A DNA stretch of 64,000 nucleotides from assembly GCA_003971905.1 (NCBI GenBank), contig RSEE01000005.1, positions 372,001 to 436,000 on the forward strand, written 5' to 3'. The notes under the pieces were generated by a model that worked only from the letters and a program-made list of their open reading frames with translations, was not told the origin of the DNA and ran no database searches. Shown piece by piece: positions 33 to 64,000 of this stretch (position 1 is the stretch's first letter; every line of letters starts with the position of its first letter). Both the position numbers and the translations under genes were made by a program. Source of the DNA: Moniliella sp. 'wahieum' (lineage: Eukaryota).

Positions 33-324
33 ATGCATCGTCGATCATTAATCATGCATTAATCATCCGCGGCGATGGGCGCATTGGTCAAGATCGCCCG
101 ACTCGTACCGCGCCGTACCCTGCCCAAATACTTCCGTCGCCCATCCCAGGCCATCCCCCCATCATGCATCAGGCCTCATCGACTATCGACCATCGACCAT
201 CGACCCATTCTACGCCCAAACCTCGTCTCGCGCGGCAAAAGAGCCAGATCGTTGAAGTTGAACGTCAACCTTGAAGAGCTTGAAGCTTGAAGCTTGAAGC
301 TTGAAGCTTGAAGCTTGATTAATG
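33..324. repeat. Cluster of phased 7-bp palindrome-core repeats, including (AAGCTTG)5
   Basis: ATGCATC-GTCGATC-ATTAATC-ATGCATT at 33-60; ATGCATC-AGGCCTC-ATCGACT-(ATCGACC)3 at 164-205; (AAGCTTG)5-ATTAATG at 283-324. Confidence 0.9.
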
Positions 325-999
325 ATTGCCCACAGCATCGCTGACATGCGTCTACTTTTCCTTCCTGTACTGCTGTATACCCAGAGGTCCCACATCCTGC
401 ACCATACACCCACGCATGCCAGATCCCAGTGGGATCTGTCTGAGACGACTTGTTGGTTTTTCGTATTGCGCTCGTGTTCTTCATCCATCTTCGAGCTTCA
501 AGCTTCAAGCTTCACCCGACGGCGAGAATCATGTTAATGATGCATCATGCATCCATCATGCACATGTGGAGTTGCAATGGGCAGACAGTGCAATGAACGT
601 TTGAACCTCCCTTCTCTCTTCGCGGTGAGTTTCTTTTTATCTGAAGCGATGAATACACGCTGCTGGACGCGACCACCATTGACGCGACCGAGACGCGAGG
701 CTGACCTGCGCAGCGGAGTGGCAGGTAGGGAGGCCAAGAGGACCAAGCAACATGCAACCACCAGAGAAAAAAAAGGTGCAACAGGATTGAACGTGTTGGA
801 CCGCCGCACCGCCGCAACGTCGCAAACGCACAATAAGGGGGGGAAATCGGAATGAACGATGTCTTCGCCATTGATTCGCAGTTCTACGCATGGTATCAGA
901 TACGCTCCTATCGTCAATTGTCGGTACAGCAAAAGCAACAGGCTAGGTTCCATCCAGAGGGACCAACTGAATGTTCCAGTGCTTGTAGCGCCATGACTA

Positions 1000-3900
1000 G
1001 CAAGCATGACTAGGGGGGTACACATTGGACCCTAGGCTATTGTACAGAGTAGCAGGAGATGGATGTGTCTCTGCGCATGGTACACGTTGGTACGCGCGGG
1101 TACGTGTCAGGCTCACGACACGGGGAGGTACGGTCAGTTGGGGCAGAAGCGGCAGAAGGGCAAGAAGGAGTGGAAAGCGGGGCATCGACAAAGTGGCAGG
1201 AGCTTGCCGAGAAGAAGCAGGATCCTGGGTCGGATGAAGAGACGGATGCAGCTGCCCAATCCCATGGGAGTGGAGCCGTGCCAGGTAGGCGGATGAAGAT
1301 CCGACAAAGTAATGTTGCTGGCGGGAGAAGCGTTGCGTTCGTCGGGCAAGCGCTGTCCGAGTCCCCCAAAAAAGGCTGTCACCGCAATCAGCTTGTGACG
1401 AAAACTCATGCTCCACCACCACCTGGGAATAGTTCAGCCCTTCCTCTTCCGCATCCGATTGCTCTGCGTCGGCGGGGATGCCTTCCCCCTTTGCGCGAGG
1501 TGCCCCCCGAGGAGGAACGGCCTGGCATGCCGCTCCAACCATGCGACCCAATTCGGCCAAGTCACCCAGATGGGTGTTGCGAGGTATAAAAGGGCAACGT
1601 TGCGTACGCCAAAACAATCAAGAAAGAGTGACAGTTCCTCTCCACCAAGAGGGGCAAGACGGCTGAGACGGTAAAGCCCTTTTTCCTCTTGAACTGTCTT
1701 GGTATCCGAAGATGCAACAGCAGGCGCCGGGGAGGTAGAGACGCCGGGGCCTGGCGGGGGCCAATCGCCCCTCGATTGGCCCAGGCTCGGCGGGCTCTCC
1801 AACTGCGCTTCCTCGATCGGTTCTTTTGGATGATCGGACAAAGGATTGCCACTAGCTCCGGAACTGGCCATGCCTTTCGCTCCTTTGCACGTTGACGCTT
1901 GGCCTTACGCTTCTCGGCAGCAGAAAGGTGGCCGTGATGCTCATTAGGCTGGGGGGGAGACAGTGGCGCTGGCTCCGGCGCATCTTGTACACGAAGTGTG
2001 CGGGGATGGTCGCGGCCAGCGTGTCGGGCGCATCGTCATGAGGTGCAAATTGGTAGTCGACTCCACCCCAAGGAGGTGAGGTGCAGATGATATCAAAGTT
2101 CCACTGGGCATAGGTACGCCACTCCTCGCCCAATTCAGGGTCGGAAGCAACACGGGCAAGAGCAGCTTCCTTACGTCCACGACCGGTCCTCCTTCATCAA
2201 GGGCAGAAAGGTACAATTTGCGCGCCTTAGCATAACGTGGGGCCCAGGTAGTAATGTCGGCACAGACGAGCGTGATGCGGTCCTCAACACCATAGATACT
2301 GGCATTGTGCTTTGCGAGCGCAATCTTGACAGGATCAATGTCCAGGCCAACAACATGAGCCACCTGGCCACGCAGGCGTTTGTGAGCAAATGCGATGACA
2401 TGACCACCAGCTCCGCAAAAGGATCCAGGATCCGCAGGCGCTGGGTTGACTTGTCCCGATTGAGACCGGGGCTACGACCCGTCTGGCGGGCTGGGGGTGG
2501 GGCACGCATGGCGGTAGAAGGTTCGGGCAAGCGCGTAGACTCCAATGGCAACAAAGCCGGCGCTTCTCTCGGGCGATTAGACCAGGAGGGATGGCCAGGC
2601 CAGGGGGAAACCCAGGGGCCGGACCGGGGACATGGTAGATGAAACGGAAGCAGGAATCGGGAGAGGGGGGCGCCTCAACCCGGGAGGGGCCGAGTATGGG
2701 CTGAATTAGATCTGGGGGGGCAGCTGGGGCGCAGCTGGGGGCGTCCTCGTGTCAGGAACCGCGGCTGCGAGGGGCCCAGCTCCATGGGGAACACCGAATC
2801 AGGAGGTGCGATTGGATCGTCGTGCGCTAGCGATTGTGATTGAGCCGGTGCGTGTAGGCGCGACCGGTCGGTTGAACCGGTAACAGGGGCAGGGCTGCGA
2901 GAGAAGGCATCTCGTTGCGAGACTCGGGAGGGGAGGCGAGATACGCATGCATCGCTACACAGCGCCATGCGATATGGGCAGAGACAAATTCGGGGGTGAC
3001 CGAGTACCAGCTCTCCTTGTCAAGGAGGATTCCTTGGTTGAAGCGGGTGAAGAGGTACCAACGACTGCGCCAGTCTGTATGGAGAGGAGAGTTAATGATG
3101 GATAGGCAGACAGTACGGAAGAAGGATGGGTCAGACATACACTTGTGCATGTTGGGCGGCATATCCTCCTGGCGCGTGATGGCATGCCGGAGGAGTTTTG
3201 CCTCTTCAGGATTAACGCGAGCACGCGAGCAATAGCACGGGCGCCTGGATCGTCCTCGGGGTCAGCAGCAACCGCGGAACGAGTAGCATGGTGCCGTGAG
3301 GGGGAACCGGTGAGGACATGCGAGCAGAGGGGCTAGCAGAAATGGAGGGTGGGACGGGTGGCAGGGACCATGGAGTGCTGCCGGCGTTTGTGCCGCTGCC
3401 TCCAGGACCGGAAGATAGGGTGTGGCGGAGAGGTACACGGTGGAGGCGGGTGTGGGAGTGGGCCGAATAAGGGGGATGAGAATCGTCAGCCAGAAATGGC
3501 CTGCGGGTCTTGTGCGGCGGAGACATGGCTGATCCGGGGGGGCGGCGGAAGCGCTCCGGGGAGCGGGTAGGGTCTGCGGGTAGACGTGTCCCAGGGGTGG
3601 TACGGCGCGGCGGGTTTCCAACGCGCGAGCTGGGTGTGATGGGGGAGCGTCCGGGAACGATGCGCGGGGGAGGCGCGACGAGCGGCGGGCGGAGTAGACA
3701 AAGCGGCAGACAAGTGGTAGACGCAGAGGCAGACGCAGAGGCAGACGCAGAGGCAGACGCAGAGGCAGACGCAGACGCAGACGCAGAGGCAGACGCAGAC
3801 GCAGACGCAGCCACAGACGCAGGGCCAGAGGAAACAGGGGACGACACCGATGCTGGACCGCGTGCGGATGCGGACGCGGGGAGGGTGGGGGTGGGGGTGG

Positions 3901-4076
3901 GGGGGAGGTGGAGGCCATGTAGCGCGGGTTGAGCCAGTAGCGGGGCATGTGGCTGAGGGTCAGGTGGTGCAGGTTGGTGTCGGTCGCGTGGGGGCGGGGG
4001 ATGCCGGGGCCAGCGTGTCTGGGGGAAGGCCTGCATGGACGCCATTGCGTCTATCACCAGCCGCTCCGTCGGTCAT
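1000..4076 (-). CDS. TGS1: Trimethylguanosine synthase (RNA cap hypermethylase), spliced and frameshifted; ends approximate
   Basis: Motifs in order: MHKY|WRSRWYLFTRFNQGILLDKESWYSVTPE (intron 3075-3140, GTATGT..CAG), ILDPF, VVGLDIDPVKIALAKHNASIYGVEDRI, DIICTSPPWGGVDY, PRNT, KLIAVTAFFG. Confidence 0.85.
3720..3812. repeat. Hexamer microsatellite (GCAGAC/GCAGAG)n inside the TGS1 N-terminal region
   Basis: Direct reading; encodes (AS)n in one minus-strand frame. Confidence 0.9.
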
Positions 4077-6410: not shown

Positions 6411-7289
6411 TGGGGATGCAGATGGGGTAGCGAAGGAGGCGGTGGGGTTAACAACGGAAGAAGTTCCTCGACTAGATTGAAGTTGAACTTCAACTTGACG
6501 CGACGGTAAAGGATCCACTTGATGTTATTAGCCCAGCAATCCAATACGCCCACTACCCAAATGTGCCCATCTGGCCCACCCTTCCGCGGCTTAGCTAATG
6601 TGTCCCTCTGGCTTGGGGGGGGAGGCGCACGATGATCATCATTCACAATCGAGGATGTCGATCAAGCAATCTTCTCTGACTTGATTGCGTTTTCCAAACG
6701 CCCACGTGCCATATCTCACACAAAACAGTCGTGTCGTGGCAAAAACGCCGCGGTTGCTTGCTGTTCGAATCGTCTCCTCACCTGTTGGTAAAACGCGGTT
6801 CTAAACCGGAGGGAGCGCGAGTGGGTACAAATGAGCGTGATACGCATGTCATCTATGGATGTTTGAACCGTCTACAAGGCTCTTCCGCATAAGATCTAAG
6901 ATTCCTCCAGTGTTCAAGCGTTATGTTGCCTCTGGTCTCATATAGCAGCCGCATGGCGCATGACCACATATATTTAAAGGACTCTTTTGAGTATGTCCAT
7001 GACACTTGGCGTTACATGAAAAAGGGTAGATATAGCGAGTTATGAGCACAAGAGCGATGGCCAACAGATTAGGGATGTCAGCCCCAATTATATCCCATCC
7101 TAATGGACTACTCTGCCGCCGTTTTTTGCGCTATATAGAGTGCGGATCCTATTCTCCCTGTTCAACACTTTAAAGAAGATAATGATGATGTTTTGATATC
7201 TATGATGGAGTGCGTATCCCCCAAGATGCAAGAAAAACTGTATGATGCACTCTCTGTGATAATCTCGCGCATACTCACGAACTTTGTGT

Positions 7290-9378: not shown

Positions 9379-9379
9379 A

Positions 9380-9387: not shown

Positions 9388-9401
9388 GTCCCAACTCGAG
9401 C

Positions 9402-9481
9402 ATGCATGACGCATGATGCATGAGTATGACGTGTGACGCGTGATGTATGATGCACGATGCGTGATACATGATGCATGATGC
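9402..9481. repeat. Degenerate (ATGCATG)n heptamer array, about 11 units
   Basis: ATGCATG ACGCATG ATGCATG AGTATG ACGTGTG ACGCGTG ATGTATG ATGCACG ATGCGTG ATACATG ATGCATG. Confidence 0.88.
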
Positions 9482-10695
9482 CCCGAAGTTCGACGTTGAG
9501 TTCACCTGCGGTTCAACGTTTTCCGTTCAAATGCCTGTGTGGTATAGCAACCAGCAGGCCCCGCACCAGTGCTCCCGGGATGCGGCGGGTGTATGAATGG
9601 GGGGGAGGCTGGGCGCTCCTGGCTGGACTGGCTGGACGCGCGTTGGACAGACTGGGGCGCGCGCGCGGATGTGTCGCAAAAGAGGAGGCGTGTGCAATGG
9701 GCGTGTGGGAGACAGAATCGGGGATGGATGATGATCGATCTCGATGATCGATGATCGATGAATGATCATACATCATGCATCATGCATCATGCACATCCTG
9801 AGCTGTGCGGAGACGGGGCGGAACAAGGAACGTGGAAGTGTGGTGGAGGGCGCGCGGGCGGGGTGGGCGTGCGCGCGGTGCAAACGCCATGTTGCTCGGG
9901 ATCGGTGAGATTTGATATCTGTATTGGAATGCATGATGGGTGGAAGAAATGGGGCGGCTAGCCCTGGCCAGCCCAACATCTTTTCAAGGGGGAAGCATTC
10001 TTCGTCCGCCGAAGGCGCTGAGGGCTGGGCGCTGGCTGAGCCTCAGCGCCGAGCCGCTGAGCCGCCGAGTGCGACCGGTACTACTGTCTTGCACTGCGCA
10101 CACAGCCAGTGCTCCCGCCGAGCGTGGCTGGCGAAGGGGGCGGCTGCGTTGCTGTGCCAGGCAGCCTGAGAACGCCGTCTGCCTCCCAAAGCCCCCACGG
10201 GGAAAGAGCGGGGCAGCTGAGACACGGGGGACGGAGGTCCGCTGCTCCGCACGGACCACACACTGCCCCCCTGCTCCTCGCTCGCCGGAACGAACGCCGG
10301 AGGGCAGGAGAGCAGCCTCGGTGGCACTTGCCCAGCGTCCATGCTGCTCCGCTGCCCCCGCGCCCAGGAACGCCGCCGGCGTCGTATCCGTGTCCGCCAC
10401 CCACTAGTCACTAGTCTCTGTGACTTGCCGGTGTCTGCCACTCGCTAGTCGCTAGTCACTTGTCACTCACCTCCTTCTCACCCATCCCCATCCCCATCCC
10501 TGGCCCGCGGCACAGCAGACAGAGCAGACCAGCCTGCTGCGGCCTACTGCTGTCCCCCGCCCAACCCATAGTCTACAGCCTTCCACCGCCCGCCACGAGA
10601 CACGTCTTGTGGCGTCTTTCTTCCTTCCCACTCCCGCTTCTTCTTTATCCCTCCCACCACCCCCACCTCTCTCCCGCCGCACTACTCATCTCCCC

Positions 10696-11634: not shown

Positions 11635-12283
11635 TGCTGTGTTGGATTGCCTGCCGGTACCCACGTCTTTTGGACTCCAACGGCGTTTCTAATGCATCTT
11701 GACTGTGGTTGTCAAACAGGCCGGGGTGGCGTTCCGGGCGCTGGAATCTGCTGCCGTACGCTATAGCTTGGGAGCAGGTTGATGCCCATGTTTTTGTGGG
11801 TGTCACAAGAGGCAGACACTTTGTAGATAGCTGACTGCTCTTGAGCTGCACTGCTGGCAATGGACCGCATTTGAATAAATTGGCTGCGCCAACTGAGATG
11901 GACTGCAAGCTGTGGGTGTATGGATATGTAGCTGTCGAGAGCGCCATGACAGGTTGCAGCAGCCAACCTTGGCGGTTGGGGCAGCAGTGGGGCTGCGCAG
12001 AGCAAGGATGGGAAACAGGTTCCATGGAAGGATGCTTAAACGTTTGGGAATCGCCGCGGAGCTCAGGCTCTTGTGGGCCCAGGGGGCTCGAGATGAGCTC
12101 TGATAAGCATCTTTGACTCGCTGGCTTCAACAGCTTTACCAGTTGCTCCGCTGCCGGTGATGCCGGTGATGAATACGATGAATTCAGGTCGAGTTCAACG
12201 TTGAAGATGCGTTCAACGTTCAACGTTCAATGTAACACTTTTTGGGCTGAATATTTAGACTGCCCGCACGATCCCCATCCAGC

Positions 12284-15414: not shown

Positions 15415-15452
15415 TCCACTCTCAACAGCCCGCGAGAAAACTGCTGCGTTGC

Positions 15453-15675
15453 GTTGCTTTGCTTTGCTTGCTTTGCTTTGCTTTGCTTGCTTTGCTTTGC
15501 TTTGCTTTGCTTTGCTTGCTTTTGCTTTGCTTGCTTTGCTTTGCTTTGCTTTGCTTTGCTTTGCTTTGCTTTGCTTTGCTTTGCTTTGCTGCTTGCTTGC
15601 TGCTTGCTTTGCTTTGCTTGCTTTGCTTTGCTTTGCTTTGCTTTGCTTTGCTTTGCTTTGTTTGCTTTGCTTTGT
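15453..15675. repeat. (TTTGC)n microsatellite with TTGC variants, about 220 bp
   Basis: Direct reading; lies between the convergent kinase and PP2A-A 3' ends. Confidence 0.97.
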
Positions 15676-19217: not shown

Positions 19218-21647
19218 AGTCCCTCCTTCCGCGCATCATCAACCACCTATAATTTATCGTCTTAAAAACGATACCTTTCGTCGTCTCCACCCTCCTCCAC
19301 CCCGTTTTTTCTTGGACGATTGGACGATGACATTGTGGGGCCAAGGAGAGGTGAAGTATATACCTAGATACAAAGGAAGTGGGGGTGGGTTGCATGGCTT
19401 AGCTGGATACGTTTTGTTAGTGTGAGATGTACTATGAAATTGGCTGAGCGGTGCGCTAAATGGCGAGAGGCCAAACCGTTGACTTTTACACGAGGTTTTA
19501 TCTCTCTGTCGTGACCTCATCACTCAACGGGAAGGTTCTGGGACATTGTGAATCATCGACTTCGTTGACGGAGTCGCGGGAGAGAGGAGGAGTATCGCGA
19601 GGATGTCATCAGGAACGTTGTACAATGCAACAAGCAATAATCGATAACCGCGACAGGAAAAAGGAACAAACGTACGGGTGGGTTGTTGCAATGCAGTGAG
19701 GTTGGAAAATGGGGGGTTGCGGGTAGTGGGACAATACTTGATACAGGACGCTCTCTAGTTGAGCCTGGATGAGGGGAGGTCGTCTTTTACCTATCATTCG
19801 AATGTTAAAGGCAGACTAATATGTTCCACAGTAATGAGATAGATACTACCGCAGGGAAATGGTGGAGACGATGAAGATCTTTGATCGAAGCCACAGGAAA
19901 ATTGTGAGAGCAAAGAGCGGCGAAGCGGCGCTGAGTGCTGAGAGGCGCCACATGAGATCACTTCATTTTAATCATGGAGAGGCGTACGCTGTGCGCGAGA
20001 TTCAGTCTGTAAATGAGACTGAAAACTGAGCCTGTGAGCTCAGGGTCTGAATATTGAGTGCGTTCAACGTTGCGCACGGAGTGGGACGCACAACAAGCAT
20101 ATTTGTGCCGGATATACTGGGGAGAGAGCGCGTTCGCTCCTTGCGGATCGGCAGGACCTCAGCTATAGGATTAGCAATAAATAACTGATAACTGTTGTAG
20201 ACGCAAGCTGACTTGTGGAAATGAGTGGTTCTCTCTTCATCGACATCTGTCACATGTCCTTGTCATCCTATAGTACTACCGGGGAATTCCTAACAAGCTA
20301 ATGTGGTTACGGGTAGTTCAGGTGAATCATGTACCCGATGCGGTGTATAGCAAAAGTGATGAATTCACTGAAAGCGAGAAAACGCAACACTGCTGTGCAA
20401 AATCAATGAACCTCATGCAATGCAATGTGCACGTTGTACGAGCGTGTCGTGCTTGGTGCCCACACAAGCTGTGTACAACATGTTGTCGATTAGCGATTAT
20501 CCCGCAAGTCCCCCATTGTGTGTGAATCACTGCCATGATGCTTGCGGCCAAGAAATGAGATATCTCTTTTTCTGATGTGGCGCTTCTTCTGTGAGAGATG
20601 CCAGTGCCCATCACAAAGAGAGCGCAAAAGGCGATTTCACGAGACCACATCAGGCATCAGGCCTCCTACCATCATCATCAACATCATTCCCGGCGAGCTC
20701 ACGGAAGACGTTGTGGATAAAATTTACTACTGACTTTTAATGGAGGTATCTTGGGGGTATATGTGTGCAGAGTGATGACGAGATGCCCGCAACAACACCC
20801 CTCCGTCTTGTTGAATCAATGAATTTGCATGTCGATGACGTCGCACCAATGGAACGCTCTCTGCCCTGTACGTAGGGTATGTGGCCTAGCGGTGGCAAGA
20901 GCAGATGATCAAGATGATTTCGATGTCGCTGCTCGCTGGTCGCCGGTCGATGATCTCAAGTTGAACGTCGTTGAGTGTGAATCTATCTCCCGCCCTTTCC
21001 CGACAGGGCAACACAGCGGCAGTGCGTCAACGCGTCAACGGCTCCGAACTCAGCACAGCTGCTGCCTGTTCGGCATATAAACAGCGGGGGATCGGGGATC
21101 GATGATCGATCGGCCGCTGAGCGCACTGAGTACTCGACTGAGTACTGATTAACGATGCATGATACTTGATTGCCACCGGTGAGTCCCAGGCGGCCACTCT
21201 CCCTGTCGAACCAACGTTGGCTGGGTGCTGGCCTGTGCGGGCAAGTGCGGCCTGACCCCAGGCTGCGCGCACACTCGGCCAGTGCACCCTCTGCGCCTGG
21301 GGCTGCGTCCTATTTCGGGAGCAGGATCGCTTCGGCGCACCACACTCGCCTGGTGCGGTGCCTCGCACACGCAGCACAGCACCAGTCCGCGGCATGCACA
21401 GCGTCCTGGCTGGGTGCACTGCCCCCCTGCTCCACCCGCCATCCGGCAGCGGGCAGCGGCAGGATCCTCGCGATGCACATGCGCAGGCGCTTCTTTAGTA
21501 CAGGCACATGTAATGCGTACTCTTCCCCACGGCCGTCCAACCCGCTACGCTTCTGCCAATCTCCCGCCCCTCCTGCCTTCCACCGCCATCCCTCCGGACG
21601 AGATTGTCCCCACCACCGCCTCCAACCCTCCTCTTTCAACCCCCCAT

Positions 21648-24432: not shown

Positions 24433-25225
24433 CTCGATCGTACTTGCCCGTGCTGGTGAAGAGAGAGCAGGCCCCCTCCCGCGCGGTTTGCCACGGCCAT
24501 GTCCAGAGGGAGACAGCCAAGGGGAGGGCGTAGGGTTGGATGCACGCAACCCTAGATAGGGTTATACTGCCGCTGCGCTGGTGCTGCGGCATATATTCTT
24601 CCCCGAGTGCCCCGCGGAGCCGCAAATCAGGACTCAGCGGCAGTCGGCCGGATCGGTGCAATGTTCAAGAGCGGGTATGTACTCGCCAGCGGCCACTGCC
24701 GCTGCCTATTCCTCTCGCCCACAAGTGCGTGGCAGGATTGTATTCGCGACGGTCAATATTCAATCGTCAATGGTCAATCTTCAGTACTCAGTACTCCAAG
24801 CCGGATCCGATGTACATCCTATCCTACTCTCGCGAACCGAGCAGGGCAGACTGGCTGGCCGACACCAGATAATACCCGAGCCGAGGCTTGCTTCAGCATC
24901 TTGCACTTGAAACCCCCATAGTATGTCCTCGACGAACCGATATATTAACGAACGAACTTACAGTAGCCGGACGAGCAACGTCACCACCTAGATCCGGAAC
25001 ATACTAAGGGACTAAAGGCATAGAACAGCGATGGAGATAGACCAAAAGATGCATCACCTGCAGTCCGCTGACCACCCTACAATAAGGACATTCATTTCCT
25101 AAGTCCCGTCCCACAGGCACATGGCCGATAGAAACGAGGCAGGAGACCAAGAGCTGCTCCTTATTGACCAACTGCCCAACAGCCAAAAAAAGACAGATGA
25201 CTGGATCGAATCGAACTGGATCCAA

Positions 25226-26669: not shown

Positions 26670-27430
26670 GGTGGTTTGGGGAGGGTTTGACCCGCTCGCT
26701 CCTCCCCGCCTGGCGCTTTCTCCAGCTGGTGGACTATGTGACTCGACGAGGCACAAGCAAATTCGGAGCGGAACAGGTGCTATATTCCGCGCGGGGCTAG
26801 TTACTAGGGAGGGAGGAAGCACCCCACGAAATGTTTCATTTCGAGTGGATCACATCGGTTGGATACCCCCATCCCGTTATCTCTGCAAGCACCCGCCCCC
26901 TCTGGCCATCATCCATGGCAGCCAACACGATCCTGCCGCTTCCTACGCATAGCATGCGATGTCTTGGGGACACGATTGCCTGTTGCGCTTCGCTTTCTTC
27001 TCGTGCAGCCGCTGCGGACAATGAGGCTGCTGTTGGGGCTTATTACTATACCGCCCCTTGTTCTCCTTTTACAATGCATCCTTCACTACCGTCATACCCC
27101 ATATCCGCGCCTTGGCCGCCATCTTGGCACCACCATCCCCGTCCCCCACCCGCGTGAATCGCATTGGGGTCACTGTTCTTGCGCCTGTTTCCTTCCTTGA
27201 GCTGGAGCGCGCGTTCCTCGCGTTTGCAGGTGATGGCTGCGGTTTTTACAAGAGGCAATCACTTCCATAGCAAAACTGTGGCCTCCTCGTCGCTTCGACC
27301 TGTTTCTCTCCTTTTGGTCTTGTGCCTCTCCAGCAGCAAGCCTGTCTCCTCCCGTTTTCACCACATGTACGCGCAAGCACAGCAGTAACATCTTTCTCAC
27401 TACATTGTAGCCCCTCTCCGGGCCAGGTGT

Positions 27431-27507
27431 GGAGGGTTGAAGTCCGGCGTGAAGGGTTGAAGTCCGGCGTGAAGGGTTGAAGTCCGGCGTGAAGGGTTGA
27501 AGTCCCG
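27431..27507. repeat. 20-bp tandem minisatellite (GAAGGGTTGAAGTCCGGCGT), about 3.8 copies
   Basis: Direct reading. Confidence 0.95.
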
Positions 27508-27635: not shown

Positions 27636-30111
27636 CTACAACTGCAGCTCCTTGCGAATCTCCTCAATCCGTTCGCGCGACGCCTCGACTCGCGCCAGTC
27701 GCGCCTCGAGCTCCTTCACTTCCTCCGACACCTCTAGTCGTTCCTCCTCGCCTCCCACCGGGGTCAGTTCCCAGCCGTGCGGGTCCTTGCCGCCCAGGCG
27801 GAGCAAGGTGTGGTGGTACTTGGTCAGTCCAGGACGGTGGGAGATGGTGATGAGGGTGATACCCCAGTCCTTGCCGCCGTGTACATCAGTCCCTCCACAT
27901 CTGTCGACACGGCCGATGGGCCTCGTCCAACACACCAAACTTGGGTCGGTGGTAGAGCAGGCGGGCAAAGCTTACCCGTTGCTTCTCGCCCCCGGACAAG
28001 ACATCTTTCCACTCTTTGCGTGTCGTCCATCCCCCTCTCGGCCGGGCAGGTACGCCAAATGGACAAGCTTTAGAACTTCCTCCAGCTCCGCGTCGGTCCG
28101 ACCCATGGCAATGTGCTGCGCATACGTCGAGGGGTAAATCACCTGGTCGCGCAACGAGCCATTCGACAGGTACGGACGCTGGGGCAGGAAGAGGATGCCC
28201 AATCCCTGTGTGTAGGGGCCACCTTCACGCCGTTCTTAATAGTGGGCTGGTTGAGTGGTGCGCGGGCCGTGCCGGCAAACACGGGCCACAGACCGGCCAA
28301 GATACGTGCGATGGCCGTCTTGCCCACCCCATTCGCACCTGTGATCATCAGATGGTCGCCCGGCTTGATGGCCAGGGTCAGCGCCCGAATCAATTCTTCG
28401 CCCCCTGGGCCGAGTTGGGAGCCGGCGCGACAATTGGTACATGGTCCATCTGGATCAGGTCCGGGTCCGGCACAAACTGACCGCCAATCTGGGCCAGGTC
28501 GTACTTGGGCCGCTTGCCATCCGCATCCACCTGCGCCTGGTACACGTTCCGGTTGAGGAGGTGGAGTGTAGCAAGGAGTGTACACCCGAGAAGTGTACCC
28601 AGCCAGTTCGGCCAGCTCCTTGTACGAGTACATCAATCGGCTCCCAGCATCTGCCAGCGAAAGCAACAGTCGGCGATTGGAGATGTAGCTCTCGGTGCCC
28701 TTGGCAATATCGCCTTCGGTGTCCGCGTCCCCTGCATCCCCCTCGGTCGTGGCTGAAGCTTGCCTGCGCGCCTGACGTGCCAACCGACCAAAGAGGAAAG
28801 GCCAGGCAATGATCATGTACCCAGCCGCCGACCAGCCGTACTTGAGGATCATATCCTCGCACATGACGTACGAGATGCGAATCTTCAACAGCCCCTTGAT
28901 GTGCCTCACCAGCTTGGCATAGGTCCCATTGAGAATGCCAAGTTCGCGATGCGCCCCTTCGTAGAAGGCGATTTCCTCGGCCGACGTGATGATGTTGGTA
29001 TGGGCGGCGCGGAAGTCGCCTTCCAGCGCGGCCTCGACCGCGGCGAGTTTGCCAAAGGCAGGAGAGATGCTGCGGAGCAGCCAACCAGTAACTAGGTAGC
29101 TTGCAAACAGCTGCACCACCCCGGTCCCCCCCAGCGCCCGGCCCAACTGCCAATTGAAAATGAGCAGGTCCAAGACAGGCTTGGAAATGTTGCTGTACAA
29201 GCTGGCCAGCGCCTCGCAAAACTTGGCCACATCGTACGTGATGAATTGGTCGGCACGGCCCAGCTGACGGCCATCGAGGTTGAGCAGCTTGTAGTAGTTG
29301 CGCTCGGGGGAAAGGTAGAGATCATGCACATAGCGGGTGAGACGGGTGCGGAAGCCAATGGCCAACTTGGACTGGAGGTACCGAATCATGCTGTTTGTAT
29401 AGGTGGATGGTACAGCAAGCAGGAACCAGAGCCCAAGTCCCTTGATGAAGCCGCGACCATTGGCCGAGACCAAGTCGCCCACAATCTTGCCGTCCAGGCG
29501 GGCAACCAGAACGGAGAGGTACGTTCGCAGCACGAGGAAAAAGGTGTGCAAGAGGAGAACGTAGGTGGCCTTGTTGTGCAACTTGGGCATGAGGATGCGG
29601 AAAATGGCGCCGAGTTGCTTGAAGAAGGCCTTGTTGACGCCCACCTTGGCAACGCCGGCATTGGCCGCGCCGCCCTTTTGCGCAGCACCTGGCTCTCCAG
29701 CTGCGGCATCGGCCTTGGTGGAAGCCTTGGCCTGGGCAGCCGTCTTGGCGTCGAGCACACCGAGGGAGCGGAAGTACTCAGCATTAGTCTCGATGACGCG
29801 GGCCGAGGTGGGGATAATGAGGACCTTGCTGATACGCTCGTGGTAGGGCACGAGGAGGGTGCGGGAGCCGTCGGGGTGGGGGAGATAGAGCTGCTCGAGC
29901 GCCTGGGCCAGCTGGGCATCGTTGGCCTTGGGCGCGCGCAGGGGGGCGCGAGGCGGAGGCGGGCGCGGAGGGTGCGCAGACGGGTGGCCAGCAGCGCAAG
30001 CACCGCCGCCGCGAGCAGGACCACAGCGCGCGGGGTGCCGGGCTGCCGCACACGCGCGGCGAGCAGGGCCAGCGCGGAGGGGCGCGACGCCATCTTGCTC
30101 TGCACCGCCAT
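27636..30111 (-). CDS. PXA1: Peroxisomal ABC half-transporter (ABCD / ALDP family)
   Basis: [49 protein letters not shown] (EAA-like motif), Walker [24 protein letters not shown]. Confidence 0.93.
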
Positions 30112-32641: not shown

Positions 32642-32747
32642 GAGTTACAATCCTCTTGACGCTCAGCCCTGAGCCTTCCACTCTTACACTCTTCGGTCCT
32701 CCGCTGCCGGCCCTATCCACAAGCGCTTGCTCGAACTGCGTAAGCTA

Positions 32748-35700: not shown

Positions 35701-37695
35701 CAAGTCCTGCTTTCCCCTCCCTCTTCCACTTCCCCTTCCTCTCCCGCCCTATCCCCCTCCCCTCTCTCCCCCACCGACACGCTCGCCCCCGTGACCGTGC
35801 CCCTGACCGATACAGCCGTCCCCGCACTCGTGCGTCGCAATCCCGTTCGCCAAGCGCGTATCAACGCTCCACCCCTCGACCTGTCCATTCCAGCCAACGA
35901 CAATTTGCGCGATGGCACCTTTTCCCTGCTCGTCAACAAGGCCCCTAGCATCTTTGGCAACCCGGCCGCCCTCTCCGCCCTAGGAATGCAGGCTTTGGTG
36001 AGTATTTTCGGACCAGCGCCGGACACATCCATGCTACCTGCTTCGGAGCCAAGCTCGCCCCCCATTGCACTCGCAATCGAATCCGCGGCAAGTGACACCG
36101 AGGTCATACTGACCACCGATGGGGTCCCGGTGGCCCCCAAGAACATCAAGAAGTTGGTGGGTCACCCTGCCTTTGATGGCGTACTCGAGGCAATGCGCCT
36201 CGAGCTTCGGCGTTTTGACGAGCGTGACGTGAAGGAAGTTGTACCCATCCCCCCAGGGATCAAACCCCTTCCCGGCATGTGGGTCATAGGTACTAAGACG
36301 GATGCGGATGCTAACTTCCTCAAGTACCGTGCCCGCTACGTTGTGGGAGGGCACCGGCAAGTTCCTGGCACATGGGCGAAATCTTTTGCTCCTGCCGTTC
36401 GTACTGCTGCCGTCAACACGCTAATTGCGTTGGCCGAAGCTGATGGCCTCCACTTATTTTCTGCCGATGTGGAAGCTGCCTACCTCTATGCCGATATCAA
36501 CGAGCTCGTCTATGTTCGACCACCCCCCTTCTTCCCAGAAGCGCCCGGTCATTGCTGGAGACTCAAGAAAAGTCTCTATGGCCTGCACCAGAGCGGGGCC
36601 AACTTTGGAGATTGGCTCCGCACTTTCCTTTGCGACCGACTCCACTTCACTAGCCTAAAATCAGAGCCTTGCCTGTTCATACGTCGCACCGAACCTCTTG
36701 GCCTGATCCTAATCGCCGTCCACACTGACGACTTTTTGGTCGCGTGTCGGTCCCAAGAAGCGTATGATGAATTCTTAGTGGAATTAAGGCGCAGCATCCA
36801 AATTAAGTCCAACGGCCCCCTACGTTTCCATCTCGGCTGCCAATACGACCGTATCGATGGACGACTGTACATCAGCCAACCCAAATTCATCGCTGAGACG
36901 CTTGCCGCGCATGACATATCACCTCACCGGCCCCGCTACCTTCCAATCGGCCACCAACTTCCGCCTCCCAAGCGACCCGAACACGAAAAGCGTGCCACTC
37001 GAGACGAGCACCGTGCCTACCGTTCTATTGTCGGATCCAGCTTGTGGGCGGCTCGTATGTCCCGGCCTGATGCCCTCTTTGCGGCTACCTTTTTAGCGCG
37101 GTTTATGGACGACCCGTCCGCCGCCCACCGACGCGCAGCGGAGGACCTATTACGTTTCTTCGCCGGTACGTCTGACTACTCTTTGTGCCTCACACCCAAC
37201 CGATCTCGCCCTCTACTCGAGCTGCACACCGATGCCTCCTTTGCATCAGACAAGAGCAACTCTCACTCCGTTTCGGGCCATGTTGTTTTTGTTTTCGGTG
37301 TGCCTGTATCCTGGGGCTCCAAGTCCCAAAATCAAGGTGTGAGCAACACAGCAGCATCTGAATACCTAGCCATGGGAGATGGCCTTCGAGATGCTCTATT
37401 CATTCGCAACATACTGTTTGAACTTGGTGTCTGCAAGGCTAATCACCCGATTGAGCTCTTTGTTGACAACACCGCTGCCAAAGCGTTGGCCGAAAAGCTC
37501 GGCAGCCTAGGCAAAATACGGGAGATTGACGTCTCGTACCACGAGGTGCGGGAACGCATCCACCGAGGCGAAATTAAAGTCCACTACACTCCAGGTGCAC
37601 ACCATCTCCCTGACTGGTTCACCAAACCTCTTTCTCTTCCCAAGATCATTTCTGCGCGTAACAATTTCGATTTGGCTTCTCTTTCTTCGCGCTGA
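32748..37695 (+). CDS. Copia Gag-Pol polyprotein, apparently frameshifted
   Basis: Protease DSGA; integrase H..H/CAPC, LHLD, VDDYTRY, RSDNAPE, NGVAER, KLGPRA; RT KYRARYVVGG, DVEAAYL, LKKSLYGLHQSG, HTDD; RNase H HTDASF, SEYLAM, DNTAA, PDWFTKPL. Confidence 0.93.
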
Positions 37696-37760
37696 TCCCC
37701 TTTCTACTTTTCTTTTGTTGATGGCCAACGGGCTTCTTTCGTTCCCTTGGCCCGGGGGGG

Positions 37761-37977
37761 TGTTGGGACCCGTGGTCCCGTACTTAGGCCAAGGCGCCTC
37801 ATCACCCTTCACCCCTGATTTGTCCTCCGAAGCCTCCACGTGTATACTCAGGCTTGTCTGAACCCCTGTCTCTAGGTGTGGCACAAGGCTTAGACCTTAA
37901 CCACCACCATCGCGATTGCATTGCTCTACATTTCCAGAGGTTCTTCACCCAATCCCTTGGGTTCCTCCGGTCTTACA
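37761..37977 (+). repeat. 3' LTR (217 bp)
   Basis: Matches the 5' LTR except for three single-base indels in short runs. Confidence 0.96.
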
Positions 37978-38550
37978 CTTGCATTTTCCCCACGCGTTTA
38001 CGACAGACATGTAACGAAGTGTTGAGCCTATAGTTCAGTAGTATATCTGCTGGCCGTCACGTAACTAGAATGATCCCCATATAATGCCAGTTAGAGCAAA
38101 ATTGAAGCACGTTTGGACACCACGCGAGAGACAGGGGCGACGCCTGGTGACGCGCAACGGAAACAAAATCTTCTACGACAGCCACAATCGAAAGTACCAC
38201 TTCTCGATGTAGCCAATGGAAGCGTAAACATAGTAGGAGAGTAAGGATCAAAAGAGAGGGAGATATGGAATGCTGGATAGTATAGGGCGAGGTCACGGAT
38301 TCTTTCTTTTCTGCTGAATCCGCTCCCTCGCTCATCCTTTCCTCTGTTCCAAACGAGACGAACTGGTGAGAGAATGAGAAGAGATAGAGGAAATGCAAAG
38401 AGAGAGACACCAGGGCGCGAAGAATACAAAGCAAAATAACGTGTCTGAGCGGAAACGGACGAAACCAGCGCCCGTTCCAGGAAAACACGGTCAAAAGATC
38501 ACCTACTGCAGTGCACATCGCCACCAAACATGTGTGGGCTCTCCTCTTCA

Positions 38551-39858
38551 TCAACTGTTGTTGATCCAAAAGTTGAACAGATCGGTGGGGCGCCACTGGA
38601 CGTGGAGAGACGGTTAACCGAGTTGATGTTGATCTGCTCCATCACACCATAGAACGCAATGCCCTTGACGTAGCTGGTCGAATGGGCCCAGTTGTTTACC
38701 TCCTTGACGTAATTGTAGGCTTGGCCCAACGAAGGCGCCGCTGTGCCATCGTAATTCATGCACGCCGTCTCGGTGATAAAGATGGGCTTGCCAAAGGTGG
38801 TGTGCCACTTTTCAAAGTATGCAATCGCCTTTTGCGGGTTCGTGCCAAAAGTGGAGGCTGTCCGCGTCGATCTGAGGAACGAAAAAAGGTTAGCCCTGCC
38901 ACATAGAATAGGTGGCAAGAATAGAGGGAGAAAATGGGAGACATGACAAGAGACTTACCTTGTTCCACACATCGCTGCACTGGGACTTAAAACTGTTCAT
39001 CCAGTCCAACCCGTTCGGCGCACCGTTGGTCGAAGCTCCGATGATGGACCAGCCATCCTCGTCTTTCAACGGCACAATGTACTTTCGGAACAGGTCGCAT
39101 GCCTCTCCCGCGCTCATCTCGCCTTGTCCAGCTTGGTTCACTTCGTTGGGACCCATGGCCACCTTGGCACTGTTTTGGGCTGCGTTGCGGTCATTCAGCA
39201 CATACTTTTGCCAGTTGGAAATGCGGGAACCAGCATTGCTCCACAACATGGGGAAAAATTTAATCGAATCGGGCACAAAGGCGGCGGCGGTGGGATTGCC
39301 CGTGGCAGGAAACGCGTCCCACGAGTAGAGCCAGCCCATGGTCTTCTTGAAAGGCTGAATGTTAACCCAGGGACCGTTGGGCCAAGCCAGACCATTCTTC
39401 TGCACATCCAACCCGGCGCCAGAGCCGCCCGACGACGACGAACCCGAGCTGGGCGCGCTAGACGTGGCGGCCTGAGAGCTTTTCGGGGAAGTGGGAGCAC
39501 TGGACGAGCCACTGGGCGTCGGCGTGCCCTTTGCCGCGGAGGACGAAGAACTGTGACGGTACATACTGGCAGGCGACGATTGGGCCGACTTGTGAGGCGG
39601 GGAAGAGGAGCCTGCATCGGGCGAGGAGGCGGAGGAAGAAGTAGGCTGGGCCGAAGCGGAGGTGGGCGGCTTGTGGTGGCACTTGCGTTGATGTTGGCGA
39701 CGGGCCTTGCGACTGAGATCGCCGTGGGCATGGACGTGGCCGCGGCGGGCGTGGAGGTGGGCCGGGTGAGCCACCAGACCATCATGGGAGGGAGAAGCAG
39801 TGGCGACCAGCGCCGAGCCAGCGACGATGGCCATCGTGAGAAGGCGAGTGAGCTGCAT
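38551..39858 (-). CDS. Secreted GH128 (Glyco_hydro_cc / Asl1-like) beta-1,3-glucanase
   Basis: Signal peptide, Ser-rich linker, GLAW, WLYSW, FFPMLW, GPNEVN, KPIFITE; intron 38872-38958. Confidence 0.85.
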
Positions 39859-41049
39859 AATCAAGAGAGATAGAGGGGGAGAGAGAGAGAGGGAGAGTAT
39901 ATAAGCCGTGGGGTGGTGGGTGGGGTGGGTGGGTTGGGACGGAGGGCGAGAGAGGCGTGGGGAGTGCTGGAAAGAACCTGCTTTCAGCGGCGACAGCGTC
40001 GAGCCGTGCGGGGTGGGTGGAGCGGAAAGGGGGAGGGAGAAGCGAGCGAAGGGGTGGGGTGAAGGGGAGGAGGTGGCGCACCGTGGGAGCAGGCAGGGTC
40101 ACTGGTTATATACCTAGGCCCCGCTTCCACCAGCTCTGGCGGGCGCCCCACCACTGTGCAGCGGCTGCGCATAGCGGGGGCACGGCACCAGTGTGGCTGC
40201 GGTCCACGTCAAGCAATGTCGCACCTGGGCGCCCTGCCTGCCCTGCCACGTCGGCGGCTGCCCCGGTGTGGGCTGGTGGCACGGCAGCACAGGGCAGCAG
40301 AGTGTGCAGGATGTGTGATTCTGTCGGTGACCTCACCGGTGAAGGCGGAAGCTTGACAGCCTGCTGCGGCCTGGGGCGGCTGATCGCCCTGCCGCATCCG
40401 GCATCTGCGGCTCCACCCAGGAACTAGGGCAGTGAAGCTTGAAGCTTGAAGCACGACGGAGCACTGCGCGCTAGTGAGCGCACAACTCGGACAGAGGGAG
40501 TGCCGGGAGCCTCCGGAGGATGCTGTCCCAGGTACCAGGTGGAGCAGATCCTGGGCTGGAGCTGTCGCCTGTTCATGGGTTGTGCGCCAAGCCAAGGGGA
40601 GGTGCCACGTTGGCTGCCCCACCATAATGACTACGGTAGTAGCCTCCTCGTCAGGCCAGTCAGGCGGCCTCGGGGCCTCAGGCCTCAGTCTGCACTAAGG
40701 GTACTTGCCCATCTTGCTGTGCCAAGAACAGTTGGCAAAAGGAGAGGGACCTGGAAGGACCGGCAGGCCCGCTGAACGTTGAACGGTTGTCAGCACATCT
40801 TCTCAGCGACCACGATATATGGTACTACTAGATATGAGATTGTTTCGGCTGACCGGCGTGGTTGATGGTGACCTCGGCGACCCCAGCGACCAGCACACCA
40901 CCACAGTAAATAATACTATTCTCACCGTTGCATAGTACACCATTCAATACTCAGTTGCAGGAATCCGGGTTGGAAGCGAATGAAGGATTAATGACGGGAG
41001 GCAGAGAGGTCTCTGTCCTGCGTGAGACTCTACGGAATGGATTCCTATA

Positions 41050-41273
41050 TGTAAGACCGGAGGAACCCAAGGTTTTGGGTGATGAACCTCTGGTGATCAA
41101 GAGCCATGGAATCGCGATGGTGGTGGTTAAGGGTTAAGGTCTAAGCCTTATGCCACACACAGACAGGGGGTTCAAACAAGTCTGAGTATACACGTGGAGC
41201 TTCGGAGGTCAAATAAGGGGCAAAGGGTGATAAGGCGCCTTAGCCTATGTCGGGACCACCGCGGGTTCCAACA
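41050..41273 (-). mobile_element. Diverged solo LTR of the same copia family
   Basis: Reverse complement aligns end to end with the LTR (TGTTGGAACC...CCGGTCTTACA); flanked by TSD CTATA (41045-41049 and 41274-41278). Confidence 0.93.
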
Positions 41274-55160: not shown

Positions 55161-55222
55161 CAGCATTGAGCATCGAACATCGAGCATAGAGCATCGAGCA
55201 TCGTGGCTTCGAGCATCGAGCG
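55161..55222. repeat. (AGCATCG)n heptamer array
   Basis: AGCATTG AGCATCG AACATCG AGCATAG AGCATCG AGCATCG. Confidence 0.85.
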
Positions 55223-58208: not shown

Positions 58209-58699
58209 GGTGGCCGGGACGATTGACCTCGCTCTGTCCGGCCGAGGGGGAGGCGGAGGGCGGTGAGACAGCGGAGATGAGGGGACTCAGCGAGGTCGAG
58301 TCAGCACGTGAATGTTCCAGTTGAACGTGGACGCCGCGACCTCTCAACGGAGCACGGCGGGCGAGCGGCTGATACTGAGCAAGCTACGGACCGCCGTGGC
58401 TTGCGTCTTGGCGGTTCGCGGCCTGAGCAATGCAATGCAATCCCAGCATCCTACAAGTGGCCATGGACGGATCAGTGAGACTCAGAATGATTGATCCCTG
58501 ATTCATTAATTGATTGGCGAATGGAATGCCGACTGGGGGGCGGAGATGCAATTTTTCGCAGGCAGCCGGATTTGATTTTGCTGGTCAGGATCTGATCTCT
58601 GATCTCTGAGATCTGACGGCTATCGGATGGTTGGGATGCGTCGAACCGACACAATCAGTGCCATTGCCAGTGCTCAGTTGCTGGGCCTCTGGGGCTGCT

Positions 58700-61160: not shown

Positions 61161-61599
61161 GGCGGCAGAGGCAGAGGCAGGGGTGCGGGAGGGGACGGGG
61201 GAGGGGTGATGGTGGAGGCGGGGGGGCTTGTCACGCTGACGGGTATCGACCGGCTAGCCAAGGCCTGGGGTTGAGTCAACTCGAAACCACATGGCCGCCT
61301 TCAAACGTTCAACTTACGTTGATGCGCATCCCATCGTTTCAACTTTCAACTGGGCCGTGCACGCTTCAACGTTCAAACGTCAGCCTTCAATTCACTGAAC
61401 GTTCAACCGTCCCTCCCAGGCCGAGCGCCGGGTGGATCCCCTTCGATTCCGCCCGCTGCCTAATGGTGCGGCGTGTCCACGCGCGTCCTCCCATGCGCAG
61501 TGCCGCGGGCCTTAACGTCCTCAACGTTCAACCCCAGAGTGCTACGGCGGTTGAACTAGCAGCCTGCCCCACCCCCGCCCCAGCAGCACAGAGTGGAGG

Positions 61600-63698
61600 C
61601 AGTGACTAGGGAAGACGGGGGGACGATGGCGATGACACCAATGCATTTGGTTTTGTTTTGGGTGGCGCGGTCAGTCGGACGAGTCGCTCTGTAGCTCAAT
61701 CGTCTCGTTCTCCAGGATGGGCGGGATGCGGAAGGTGGTGTCGGTATCCATGTCCTGCAAGCCCACGATCCGGGTCGAGCGTTGCTCCCTCGCTCCGTCT
61801 TGGGTGGATGTCGGGTGCGTGTCGGTTTTGGGTTCGCCCACCTCGACCGCGTGGGGTAGGTAGGCATAGGGGGTGCCCTGCCAGAACGGATCGGTGGCCA
61901 GCGGCGGAGACGGCGGCGCGTGGGGCAAGCGAGACTGAGAAGGATGGGCCAGGGCATGCAGACGATTGGCCGTCTGAACCGCTTGGCCGGGGGGTAAATG
62001 TCGACGAGCGCCACCTCTTCGTCGCGTTGTCTTTGGTTGGCCTCGTCTTCGTCTTCCACATCAAACTCGCCTTCCGTTCTTCGTATTCCATGTTCTCCTC
62101 CAACTCTTCAAACCCAGGCATACGCCGACCAATTTTCTCGCTCGGCACCGACCAAAGATGAATGTCGCCATTCTTGCTGAGACTCGCCATGGCCGCCCGG
62201 GCCGGGTGCCAATCCACATCGACCAACGCGTCCTTCGGACCGTCAATCGTCTTGTTCAGCCGACCTAATACCCGCTCCCACACATACACACTGTGCTTCT
62301 CCCCATTCGCCGCACCGGCATAAATGTACTCCCCGTCCGCACTCAACCCAATCCCGTTCCATTTGGTACGGCCAATCTGGTCTTGAAACGAGTACTTGGC
62401 CTGCACCTCAAATTGTTTCGCCTCGCCTTCCGTCGCCTCGTCCGCAAGGCCAGAAGAAGCAGGGGCCCGATGGAAATCTACCACCTTGATCCGACGGTCG
62501 TTCCCATTGGCGACCAACAAGCTAGAGGGGCAGGCAGGTCGGGGCAGGTCGGGGGCAGGGATGGGGAGGGAGGGCAGGGATGAGTTAGTGGTGGGTTCCG
62601 ATTACAAAGGGTCGAGGATCCTATACGCACCCATATCCTGCATGGTAGACCAATTGGCGCACAGCCGATGTACCAAAAATCGAAGGGTCCGACTGGACCA
62701 GCGAACGGGTTGCCACACTGTACACGTCCATCCCCCCCTTTGTGTCCCCACCACGATGTAGGCCGAACTGGCAGGACCAGAGCTAGAACTAGTGCCAGGG
62801 CCAGGGGTGGCGGCCGAAGGCGACGAGGTCGTGTGCCCGGGCACAACCACAAAACAGGCCGATGCCACCGCGTGGTTCTTGCTCGCGGGGTCACTTGACG
62901 ATTCCCCACCCACTTCCACAGCCTAGGGGGCAGTGGGCGCACGACTGGCTTGGACCAAGGTCCGGGGGGACTCGGGGTTGTTGGTGATTCGGACGGCAAC
63001 GGGGGTAGGATCCGGGTGCGGGTTACTTGGAATCGAGGTTGCACGTCACCAAAACGGCCTCTTGCGAAGCAGAGAGAACAACAAGCAGGATCGAGCTGCG
63101 AAGGTGAGGGCACCCACAAAGTCAGAAACCAACCTAACTAAGCCAAACAAAACAAAACCAAACGCGCGCGTAAGGGAGATAGGACCCTCAAGGACGGTAC
63201 AAGGTACGAGGGAAGGAAACGAACGAGTTAGTAGGGTCAAATTCGACGGACTGGACCGGCCCGTCGAATCGGATGACACGGGAGGTTTCGTCAGCTTGGG
63301 GGTGCAGGTCCCACAGGATGACCGAGTGGTCCGTCGAGGCCGAGGCGAGAAATCGGTTGCAGCGGGACCAAGCGAGGGAAGTGATGGGGCCCGCATGGCC
63401 TTCGAGCCAACGCAAAATTCCCGAAGTAGGCGGGTCCCAAATGGTCACCACCCCGTCCACCCGACCCGCTGCGAGGTAGGACCCAGCAAAGAGAAGCGAC
63501 TCGGACTGATCGCCTGCGCTGGCACTGCGGTTGAAGCGCACACACGTGGCATGCGCGTTGCGTAGCACGCGCTCCACATTGTCGGGGTGTCGTGCGCAAA
63601 GGGGTCTGAGAGGGGCGGTCAGGGCGTGTGCACCGTGTCTCCCGCTACGAGGAGCCATGGGGGGGGGGGGGGGGCGTACTCTGGAGCAGCGCGTTCAT
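61600..63698 (-). CDS. SWD1: COMPASS WD40 subunit Swd1/RbBP5; 3' end approximate
   Basis: MNALLQ, YLAAGRVDGVVTIWD, GHAGPITSLAWS, FQDQIGRTKW, VYVWER..DGPKDALVDVDWHP, MPGFEELEENMEYEER; several introns. Confidence 0.9.
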
Positions 63699-64000
63699 CG
63701 CCCTGCGAGCGGACGGGGCGGAGGCGGCGAGGGAGGAGGAGGGTGGGGCGCGTTCTTCGCTGACGCCTGGGGTCGTGCGTGTGGACGCGCAGGATTGAAA
63801 GTTGAAAAGGAGTCACGAGTACCGCCCTGGTGAACGATTGGCAACCCTACGCGAAGAGCACACGACAGCCCGCCCATCTGATCGACGGCTACGCGCTGTT
63901 GCTGGCCAGCAAGTCCGAGCCAAGCGACCTTCTCGCTCGCTGACTGCGAAGCGGCTGGTTCCCCCTTCTCTCTCTCTCTCTCCCACCCGTTATGTCCACC

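Follow-up and report, generated by a model that had tools for sequence, protein, structure and literature searches.

The 64-kb stretch analysed here in full (the window; Moniliella sp. 'wahieum', contig RSEE01000005.1, positions 372,001 to 436,000) carries short arrays of phased heptamers in its non-coding DNA. Each unit is a 6-bp palindrome that begins with A and ends with T (A-x-y-y'-x'-T), followed by a spacer S, which is C or G; read in the other phase, the same unit is a T-S-A triplet plus a palindromic tetramer, here called the core. The window has a base composition of 52-64% G+C and is eukaryotic. The best database relatives of a peroxisomal half ABC transporter, encoded by a 704-aa open reading frame (ORF) at 28139-30253 on the minus strand, are all from the Ustilaginomycotina, with 59% identity to Tilletiaria anomala and 53-58% to Ustilago, Moesziomyces and Tilletia, and they point to a smut-related basidiomycete of this group as the source. 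This fits the guess of an Ustilago-like genome made in an earlier reading of the bare sequence (hereafter the initial annotation).

Arrays were detected with Tandem Repeats Finder (TRF) and with scans for exact period-7 runs. Places with at least two perfect units number 13 and fall in seven non-coding intervals, five of these places lying within positions 1-560, and about three more intervals carry degenerate arrays only; the statement in the initial annotation that most intergenic regions hold such arrays was therefore too strong. At the left end of the window, the array at 33-66 (ATGCATC gTCGATC ATTAATC ATGCATt AATCATC) contains the cores TGCA, TCGA, TTAA and TGCA, with S = C throughout; TRF also reports an 11-bp period at 46-66. 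Mixed cores are likewise found at 162-205, where TCA-TGCA-TCA-GGCC-TCA-TCGA (ATGCATC-AGGCCTC-ATCGAct at 164-184) is followed by an exact but non-palindromic (ATCGACC)x3. The longest perfect array, at 276-325, consists of gAGCTTG, (AAGCTTG)x5 and ATTAATG, has S = G and includes a 42-nt exact period-7 run. Its AAGCTTG unit returns in the opposite orientation, with S = C, as (AGCTTCA)x3 at 494-514, which makes the pair an inverted repeat with 157-180 nt in between. Between these opposed AAGCTT arrays, at 420-438, lies a perfect 9+1+9 interrupted palindrome, CAGATCCCA-G-TGGGATCTG. The last array of the group, at 538-562, reads TGA-TGCA-TCA-TGCA-TCc and then ATCATGCA, its (ATGCATC)x2 being an exact 14-nt run.

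Further along, the degenerate array at 9402-9481 has about 11 units of TGA plus a YRYR core (TGCA, CGCA, CGTG, CGCG, TGTA, TGCG, TACA), one of them only 6 nt long, and the array at 9740-9793 (cTCGATG (ATCGATG)x2 AATGATC ATACATC (ATGCATC)x2 ATGCAca) changes S from G to C within one phased run. At 10402-10470, (ACTAGTC)x2 (10403-10416) is followed 25 nt on by (TCGCTAG)x2 TCACTTG TCACTCA, and the ATG of a short-chain dehydrogenase gene comes about 230-290 bp downstream of this array. The array at 12193-12230 opens with a 12-bp palindrome, TTCAACGTTGAA, and continues as (CGTTCAA)x3, which is the AACGTTC unit (AACGTTC x2 at 12215-12228). Unlike cores meet again at 21087-21175, where (GGGGATC)x2 and ATCGATG ATCGATC precede TGA-GTAC-TGA-TTAA-cGA-TGCA-TGA-tact-TGA; here AGTACTG-ATTAAcG-ATGCATG (21142-21162) sets three different perfect cores in register. 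Six phased TCA triplets at 24752-24796 frame the cores ATAT, atcg, atgg, atct, GTAC and GTAC (AATATTC...AGTACTC x2 at 24755-24796). The array gGA-TCGA-TCA-AGCT-TCA-AGCT-TCA-AGtg at 31955-31980, with ATCGATC-AAGCTTC x2 at 31957-31977, adjoins the end of the minus-strand ORF 31096-31950. Upstream of a glycosyl hydrolase gene lies (TGAAGCT)x2.9 at 40433-40452 (AAGCTTG x2 at 40435-40448), and an imperfect AGGCCTC array occupies 40655-40782 (gGGCCTC-AGGCCTC at 40673-40686, GGCCTCA x2 at 40674-40688 and TGAAC-GT-TGAAC at 40773). About eight copies of AGCATCG at 55162-55221 represent an expanded non-palindromic variant (ATCGAgC, one mismatch from ATCGATC), and (TCTGATC)x2.7 at 58591-58616 runs into a single AGATCTG at 58609. 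Finally, a degenerate cluster at 61300-61560 contains TCA-ACGT-type units at irregular spacing, with GTTCAAC at 61307, 61401, 61526 and 61550 (minus strand) and two copies of TTTCAAC. The arrays named in the initial annotation were each found where it had placed them, some with imperfect units (gTCGATC, ATTAAcG, gGGCCTC). Outside the arrays, two overlapping 8+1+8 palindromes (TTGAAGTTGAACTTCAACTT) at 6477-6496 are made of TTGAA/TTCAA words, which also make up the junctions in the AAGCTT and AACGTT arrays.

Counts of palindromes and of T-S-A triplets were compared with 200 dinucleotide shuffles, and exact tandem duplications with local (block-wise) shuffles. The window contains 224 A-x-y-y'-x'-T hexamer palindromes, against 165 ± 13 after shuffling. 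Pairs of such palindromes spaced exactly 7 bp apart number 18, against a shuffled mean of 0.4 (maximum 3), and pairs with unlike cores at this spacing number 4, against 0.35. The autocorrelation of T-S-A triplets at lag 7 gave 104 pairs, against 58.4 ± 7.6 (z 6.0), with a further signal at lag 14 (z 3.0) and nothing comparable at other lags; the 7-bp recurrence of TCA or TGA noted in the initial annotation is confirmed. Exact 7-bp tandem duplications were found 33 times (4.2 ± 1.8 in local shuffles), 8-bp duplications 7 times (1.4 in local shuffles) and those of 10 bp and 11 bp once each. In some rotation, 14 of the 33 exact 7-bp duplication units consist of a 6-bp palindrome and one extra base, where about 11% would be the calculated chance level, and 13 of these 14 are of the A....T + C/G type. 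Palindromes with arms of 5 or 7 nt or more and spacers of 0-5 nt were at shuffle level window-wide, with no general excess.

The arrays obey a narrow grammar. When hexamer palindromes were divided into eight classes by their outer base pair and by a spacer S or W (A or T), the A....T+S class yielded 17 pairs at lag 7, whereas the seven sister classes (A....T+W, and C....G, G....C and T....A each with S or W) yielded 0, 2, 0, 0, 0, 0 and 0. Base composition cannot give this specificity, since C....G and G....C hexamers outnumber A....T hexamers as single copies, yet form 0-2 lag-7 pairs. Nor is the result blind to unit sequence in the way of slippage, given that one of the eight palindrome classes forms arrays. 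In the other phase, the 104 TSA-N4-TSA pairs 7 bp apart have a palindromic N4 in 42 cases, against about 6% by chance, which bears out the earlier impression that palindromic cores are favoured; because about 58 of the 104 pairs are expected by chance, the lag-7 excess of T-S-A is nearly all palindromic. As many as 13 of the 16 possible palindromic tetramers are in use, led by AGCT (six places), TGCA and ACGT (four each), and CTAG is present in the ACTAGTC array, in which the outer T-S-A triplets are imperfect. The excess falls wholly on pairs that share S (CC 43 and GG 38, against CG 16 and GC 7). Both orientations of S occur within 560 bp, and comparison with the neighbouring genes gave no consistent pattern. 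When palindromic tetramers 7 bp apart were considered irrespective of what joins them, those with like cores were linked by TCA or TGA in 22 of 50 cases and those with unlike cores in 12 of 203, against about 5.3 expected in the latter (calculated from triplet frequencies).

The anatomy of the arrays shows that growth is by addition of whole 7-bp units: exact period-7 runs measure 14-16 nt (five), 19-20 nt (two), 21-23 nt (four) and 42 nt (one), and four single units show a 12-13-nt structure. Variants one mismatch off the grammar have also expanded, namely (ATCGACC)x3, (TCGCTAG)x2, (TCTGATC)x2.7 and the eight or so copies of ATCGAgC, and the first two and the last of these indicate that a palindrome is not needed for expansion. 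Decay is seen in one long array, that at 9402-9481, in which all nine full cores are YRYR and 4 of the 9 are palindromic, where 25% would be expected under free transitions; it shows that old arrays decay by point mutation without compensating changes. Events of 7 bp do occur in this DNA, since a solo long terminal repeat (LTR) at 40900-41260 carries a fresh 7-bp tandem duplication, CCTTAAC x2, that is missing from both LTRs of the full-length element (three LTR copies compared), although CCTTAAC is not of the T-S-A type. Unlike cores stand in register as TGCA-TCGA-TTAA-TGCA (33-60), TGCA-GGCC-TCGA (162-184), AGCT x5-TTAA (281-325), GTAC-TTAA-TGCA (21139-21162) and TCGA-AGCT (31957-31977). The initial annotation had argued that slippage cannot explain such core switches, a sound argument but one based on about six loci. 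Fusion of neighbouring arrays in phase, by deletions between T-S-A microhomologies, could also produce core switches while keeping phase and S.

We next consider position relative to genes. A coding-like mask, built from Pfam-supported ORFs and a codon-usage model, covers 52.7% of the window; the codon-usage gene finder is noisy on its own. None of the 29 arrayed units falls inside this mask, in agreement with the initial annotation, which saw almost none in coding sequence, and only 2 of the 42 TSA-palindrome-TSA instances do so. For comparison, the mask contains 43 of 119 single units and 16 of 62 non-palindromic pairs. The gene map is partial and its models rough, having been drawn from Pfam matches among 263 ORFs of at least 110 aa. 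It comprises a cap-methyltransferase-like gene (about 1.0-4.1 kb, minus strand), Mit_KHE1 (7.3-8.8 kb, minus), the short-chain dehydrogenase (10.7-11.6 kb, plus; ATG at 10696), a kinase (12.3-15.2 kb, plus), a PP2A-A subunit (15.8-17.9 kb, minus), a class I tRNA synthetase (25.4-26.4 kb, minus), a copia-type retrotransposon (33.7-37.7 kb, plus) and the glycosyl hydrolase (38502-40098, minus). Other Pfam-supported ORFs encode ankyrin and kinase proteins, GATA and C2H2 factors, an N-acetylglutamate synthase, an M24 peptidase and a WD40 protein.

The window also contains repeats of other kinds. The copia-type LTR retrotransposon spans 32426-38000 and is apparently intact: its integrase and RVT_2 ORFs lie at 33669-37692 (plus strand), its LTRs (TGTTGGG...TCTTACA) are about 225 bp long and distinguished by two 1-nt indels, and CTTGC is duplicated as a 5-bp target site; a scan of viral contigs with its reverse-transcriptase ORF as query found no relative. 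The solo LTR described above belongs to this family, lies in inverted orientation and is about 10% diverged. A pentanucleotide microsatellite, (TGCTT) x46, occupies 15445-15674, directly downstream of the kinase-domain ORF. The long ORF 3215-4072 (minus strand) includes, at 3705-3829, an (AGACGC) x17 hexamer repeat with a 24-bp super-period (x5) that probably represents low-complexity coding sequence. Directly downstream of the ABC transporter gene lies a 20-bp tandem repeat, GTGAAGGGTTGAAGTCCGGC x3.8 (98% matches), at 27429-27505.

As control DNA, we used a metagenome collection scanned for (AAGCTTG)3, which returned at least 121 loci (622 kb). The AAGCTTG unit is common elsewhere, since runs of (AAGCTTG)3 or longer occur in at least 121 metagenome contigs. 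Among the matches listed, however, the wider grammar of the window was not reproduced: six A....T+S lag-7 pairs lay outside the seed arrays, the in-phase neighbours of the seed arrays varied as NNGCTTG (cagcttg, gagcttg, cggcttg) and were perfect in 7 of about 480 flanking units, and non-AGCT T-S-A cores were palindromic in 46 of 699 cases (6.6%), compared with 29 of 91 (32%) in the window. As far as can be seen, the multi-core grammar is particular to this fungal genome. The fungal arrays do resemble bacterial heptamer arrays (STRR-like repeats of cyanobacteria) in their 7-bp period, intergenic location and frequent self-complementarity. They differ in their host and in holding T-S-A constant while the palindrome varies, in contrast to the NNGCTTG variation of the metagenome arrays. 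About twenty low-GC marine contigs among the matches listed share the context ctaaatt-catccta-tactatc-...-cattgtc ahead of (AAGCTTG)3 or longer, which looks like one conserved element, promoter-like and then a heptamer array, of a marine microbe or phage. In the literature, as far as titles and the openings of abstracts go, no intergenic palindromic heptamer arrays are described in fungi, four 14-mers from the arrays appeared in no relevant paper at that level, and nothing relevant emerged there on the TCACGAT-type repeats of Ustilago maydis mentioned in the initial annotation.

We tentatively favour, with a confidence slightly short of even, a model in which the arrays are a lineage-specific heptanucleotide repeat family of mutational origin, produced by T-S-A-anchored birth, slippage and neutral decay, and not a code read by a protein. 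The palindromy of arbitrary cores argues for a process that copies or pairs strands, or joins two inverted ends, rather than for recognition by a protein, and the invariance of T-S-A argues for a sequence-specific step. Birth would be an event anchored on T-S-A that creates the 7-bp unit T-S-A + x-y-y'-x', converting T-S-A into T-S-A + xy.y'x' + T-S-A, in which triplets of the same S flank a 4-bp palindrome. Ordinary replication slippage or tandem duplication would then add whole 7-bp units, palindromic or not, and point mutations would erode them without compensating changes. Unlike cores might come into register when a unit is newly born at a T-S-A within an existing array or through T-S-A microhomology deletions between neighbours, and survival of arrays would be limited to non-coding DNA, where indels of 7 bp are tolerated. 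In most respects the products look like eukaryotic heptanucleotide microsatellites: exact head-to-tail copies, 2-6 and up to about 11 in number, in non-coding DNA, with partial end units, variant units that also expand, decay by point mutation and length steps of whole units. They are unlike microsatellites in that slippage ignores unit sequence, whereas here a single grammar covers 13 of the 33 exact 7-bp duplications and every phased palindrome pair, and in that different cores share one register. Of the two readings offered in the initial annotation, the footprint of some DNA transaction is the one we prefer, while a code read by a TCA-N4-TCA factor is hard to reconcile with 13 cores. It is also possible, although on balance doubtful, that an undescribed, lineage-specific transaction inserts or duplicates exactly 7 bp at T-C/G-A in open non-coding DNA, making a 3-bp target duplication round a de novo 4-bp palindrome; a nuclease, transposase-like or repair activity that cuts with a 3-bp stagger and adds 2 nt symmetrically could be the agent.

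Several points weigh against a mutational origin. We know of no enzyme or process that makes units of T-S-A plus a 4-bp palindrome, as the birth step would require. Folding does not set the class apart: by a nearest-neighbour model that lacks special terms for a T-S-A loop, and which a peculiar loop stability would therefore escape, the mean energy of five units is -8.0 kcal/mol for A....T+S, -8.2 for A....T+W, -8.4 for T....A+S and -8.25 for T....A+W. Nearly all array intervals contain a probable promoter, as at 9.1-10.7 kb between divergent genes and upstream of the genes starting near 12.28, 21.2-21.5, 31.95 (minus strand) and 39.86 kb (minus strand). TCATGCA and GTTCAAC also occur singly, scattered as binding sites would be (20 copies at 16 loci for TCATGCA, with 6.3 expected, and 22 copies at 19 loci for GTTCAAC, with 7.4 expected). 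The evidence, moreover, comes from one 64-kb window and the control DNA.

Alternatively, the arrays could be cis-regulatory, with a multimerising or tandem-domain factor reading T-S-A every 7 bp (three units making two helical turns), or various dimers reading the hexamer palindromes, so that arrays tune promoters. In its favour, the arrays all lie outside coding-like DNA and mostly occupy intervals with at least one gene downstream of them, the constant element is T-S-A, and dispersed TCATGCA and GTTCAAC are over-represented roughly 3-fold, with an irregularly spaced cluster of the same motif at 61300-61560. The arrays also resemble clustered transcription-factor sites, such as heat-shock elements or bZIP sites with a central C/G, in being short, phased, partly dyad-symmetric and located in promoter-containing intervals, and GAAnnTTC-like words can be read directly inside the AACGTTC and AAGCTTC arrays. 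We nevertheless consider this explanation unlikely. The 13 interchangeable cores share nothing but palindromy, which a T-S-A reader does not need and which a dimer on the hexamer would not tolerate, and the same S on one strand makes the units direct repeats at 7 bp and not the inverted half-sites of dimers. Orientation is mixed within a single interval, many arrays are perfect and hence young-looking copies while older ones decay freely, and non-palindromic and non-TSA variants expand as well. A fixed protein-binding word was rejected, as T-S-A alone is constant across the cores and no recognition word is fixed, which is hard to reconcile with a word-reading protein.

If the signal is mutational, familiar processes might still account for it. 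One such process is the excision of cut-and-paste transposons, which would duplicate a 3-bp T-S-A target and leave behind 2 nt of each inverted terminus, each repeated hit at one T-S-A adding a 7-bp unit that slippage then amplifies. The canonical excision footprint of Tc1/mariner elements follows the same logic of target duplication plus terminal remnants, and P-nucleotide palindromes arise at hairpin-opened ends in hAT, Transib, MULE and V(D)J systems; in both, as in the arrays, a short direct duplication flanks a palindrome that is small and perfect and does not owe its sequence to a binding protein. Such footprints would have an invariant T-S-A as target, one S throughout an array, copied by the target duplication, a palindromic core owing to the inverted termini, and different cores in strict register, and promoter-proximal open DNA is commonly targeted by DNA transposons. 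We regard this origin as quite unlikely, however, because at least 13 different terminal dinucleotides would be required, whereas families of one transposon superfamily usually share termini, and because we know of no superfamily with a TCA/TGA target duplication. The window holds no donor in the form of an inverted-repeat element flanked by T-S-A, no matching termini, and no DNA-transposase Pfam domain among its 263 ORFs of at least 110 aa. Array ends usually carry at least two extra unit-like bases, and the lengths are 7n and not 3+7n, which fits duplication of whole units better. A Transib-like scheme of a 5-bp duplication plus two P-nucleotides was likewise rejected as the principal route: four single units are exactly 5+2+5, but array lengths are 7n and not 5+7n. 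Very unlikely, in our view, is that the arrays are purely hairpin-driven microsatellites, in which chance 7-mer duplications expand faster when palindrome-plus-one units fold into slipped hairpins, with T-S-A favoured as an unusually good three-base loop or mismatch context. Arrays of one repeated unit do fold as 6-bp stem blocks with single S-S mismatches (-4 to -11 kcal/mol for five units), and the share of palindrome-plus-one units among the exact duplications is well above chance. Self-pairing alone does not give class specificity, however, since array-free classes are equally or more stable: classes of the same or higher stability have 0-2 arrays against 17, including the G/C-closed ones, at -12 to -14 kcal/mol for five units. 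In addition, unlike cores stand in register yet cannot pair with each other, closely spaced palindromes show no general excess in the window, and broken palindromes expand too. The hairpin or template-switch footprint suggested in the initial annotation finds some support as a footprint of a DNA transaction; as a plain hairpin effect it has none.

A mutational trace of this kind would matter beyond the window. To our knowledge, none of the standard lists of microsatellite biases, transposon footprints and repair scars predicts this grammar; if it extends genome-wide, it would give a eukaryotic example of a clean, natural signature left by a process of small, sequence-specific duplications, and if a 7-bp transaction at T-S-A is at work, the arrays would be a genome-wide record of where that activity cut. 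Were the arrays read by a protein instead, they would constitute an unusual regulatory element that specifies only symmetry and not sequence. The arrays would supply very variable markers located in promoters and a test case of promoter sequence being reshaped by mutation rather than by selection, and they could lead to a nuclease, transposase or repair activity that is new in the Ustilaginomycotina.

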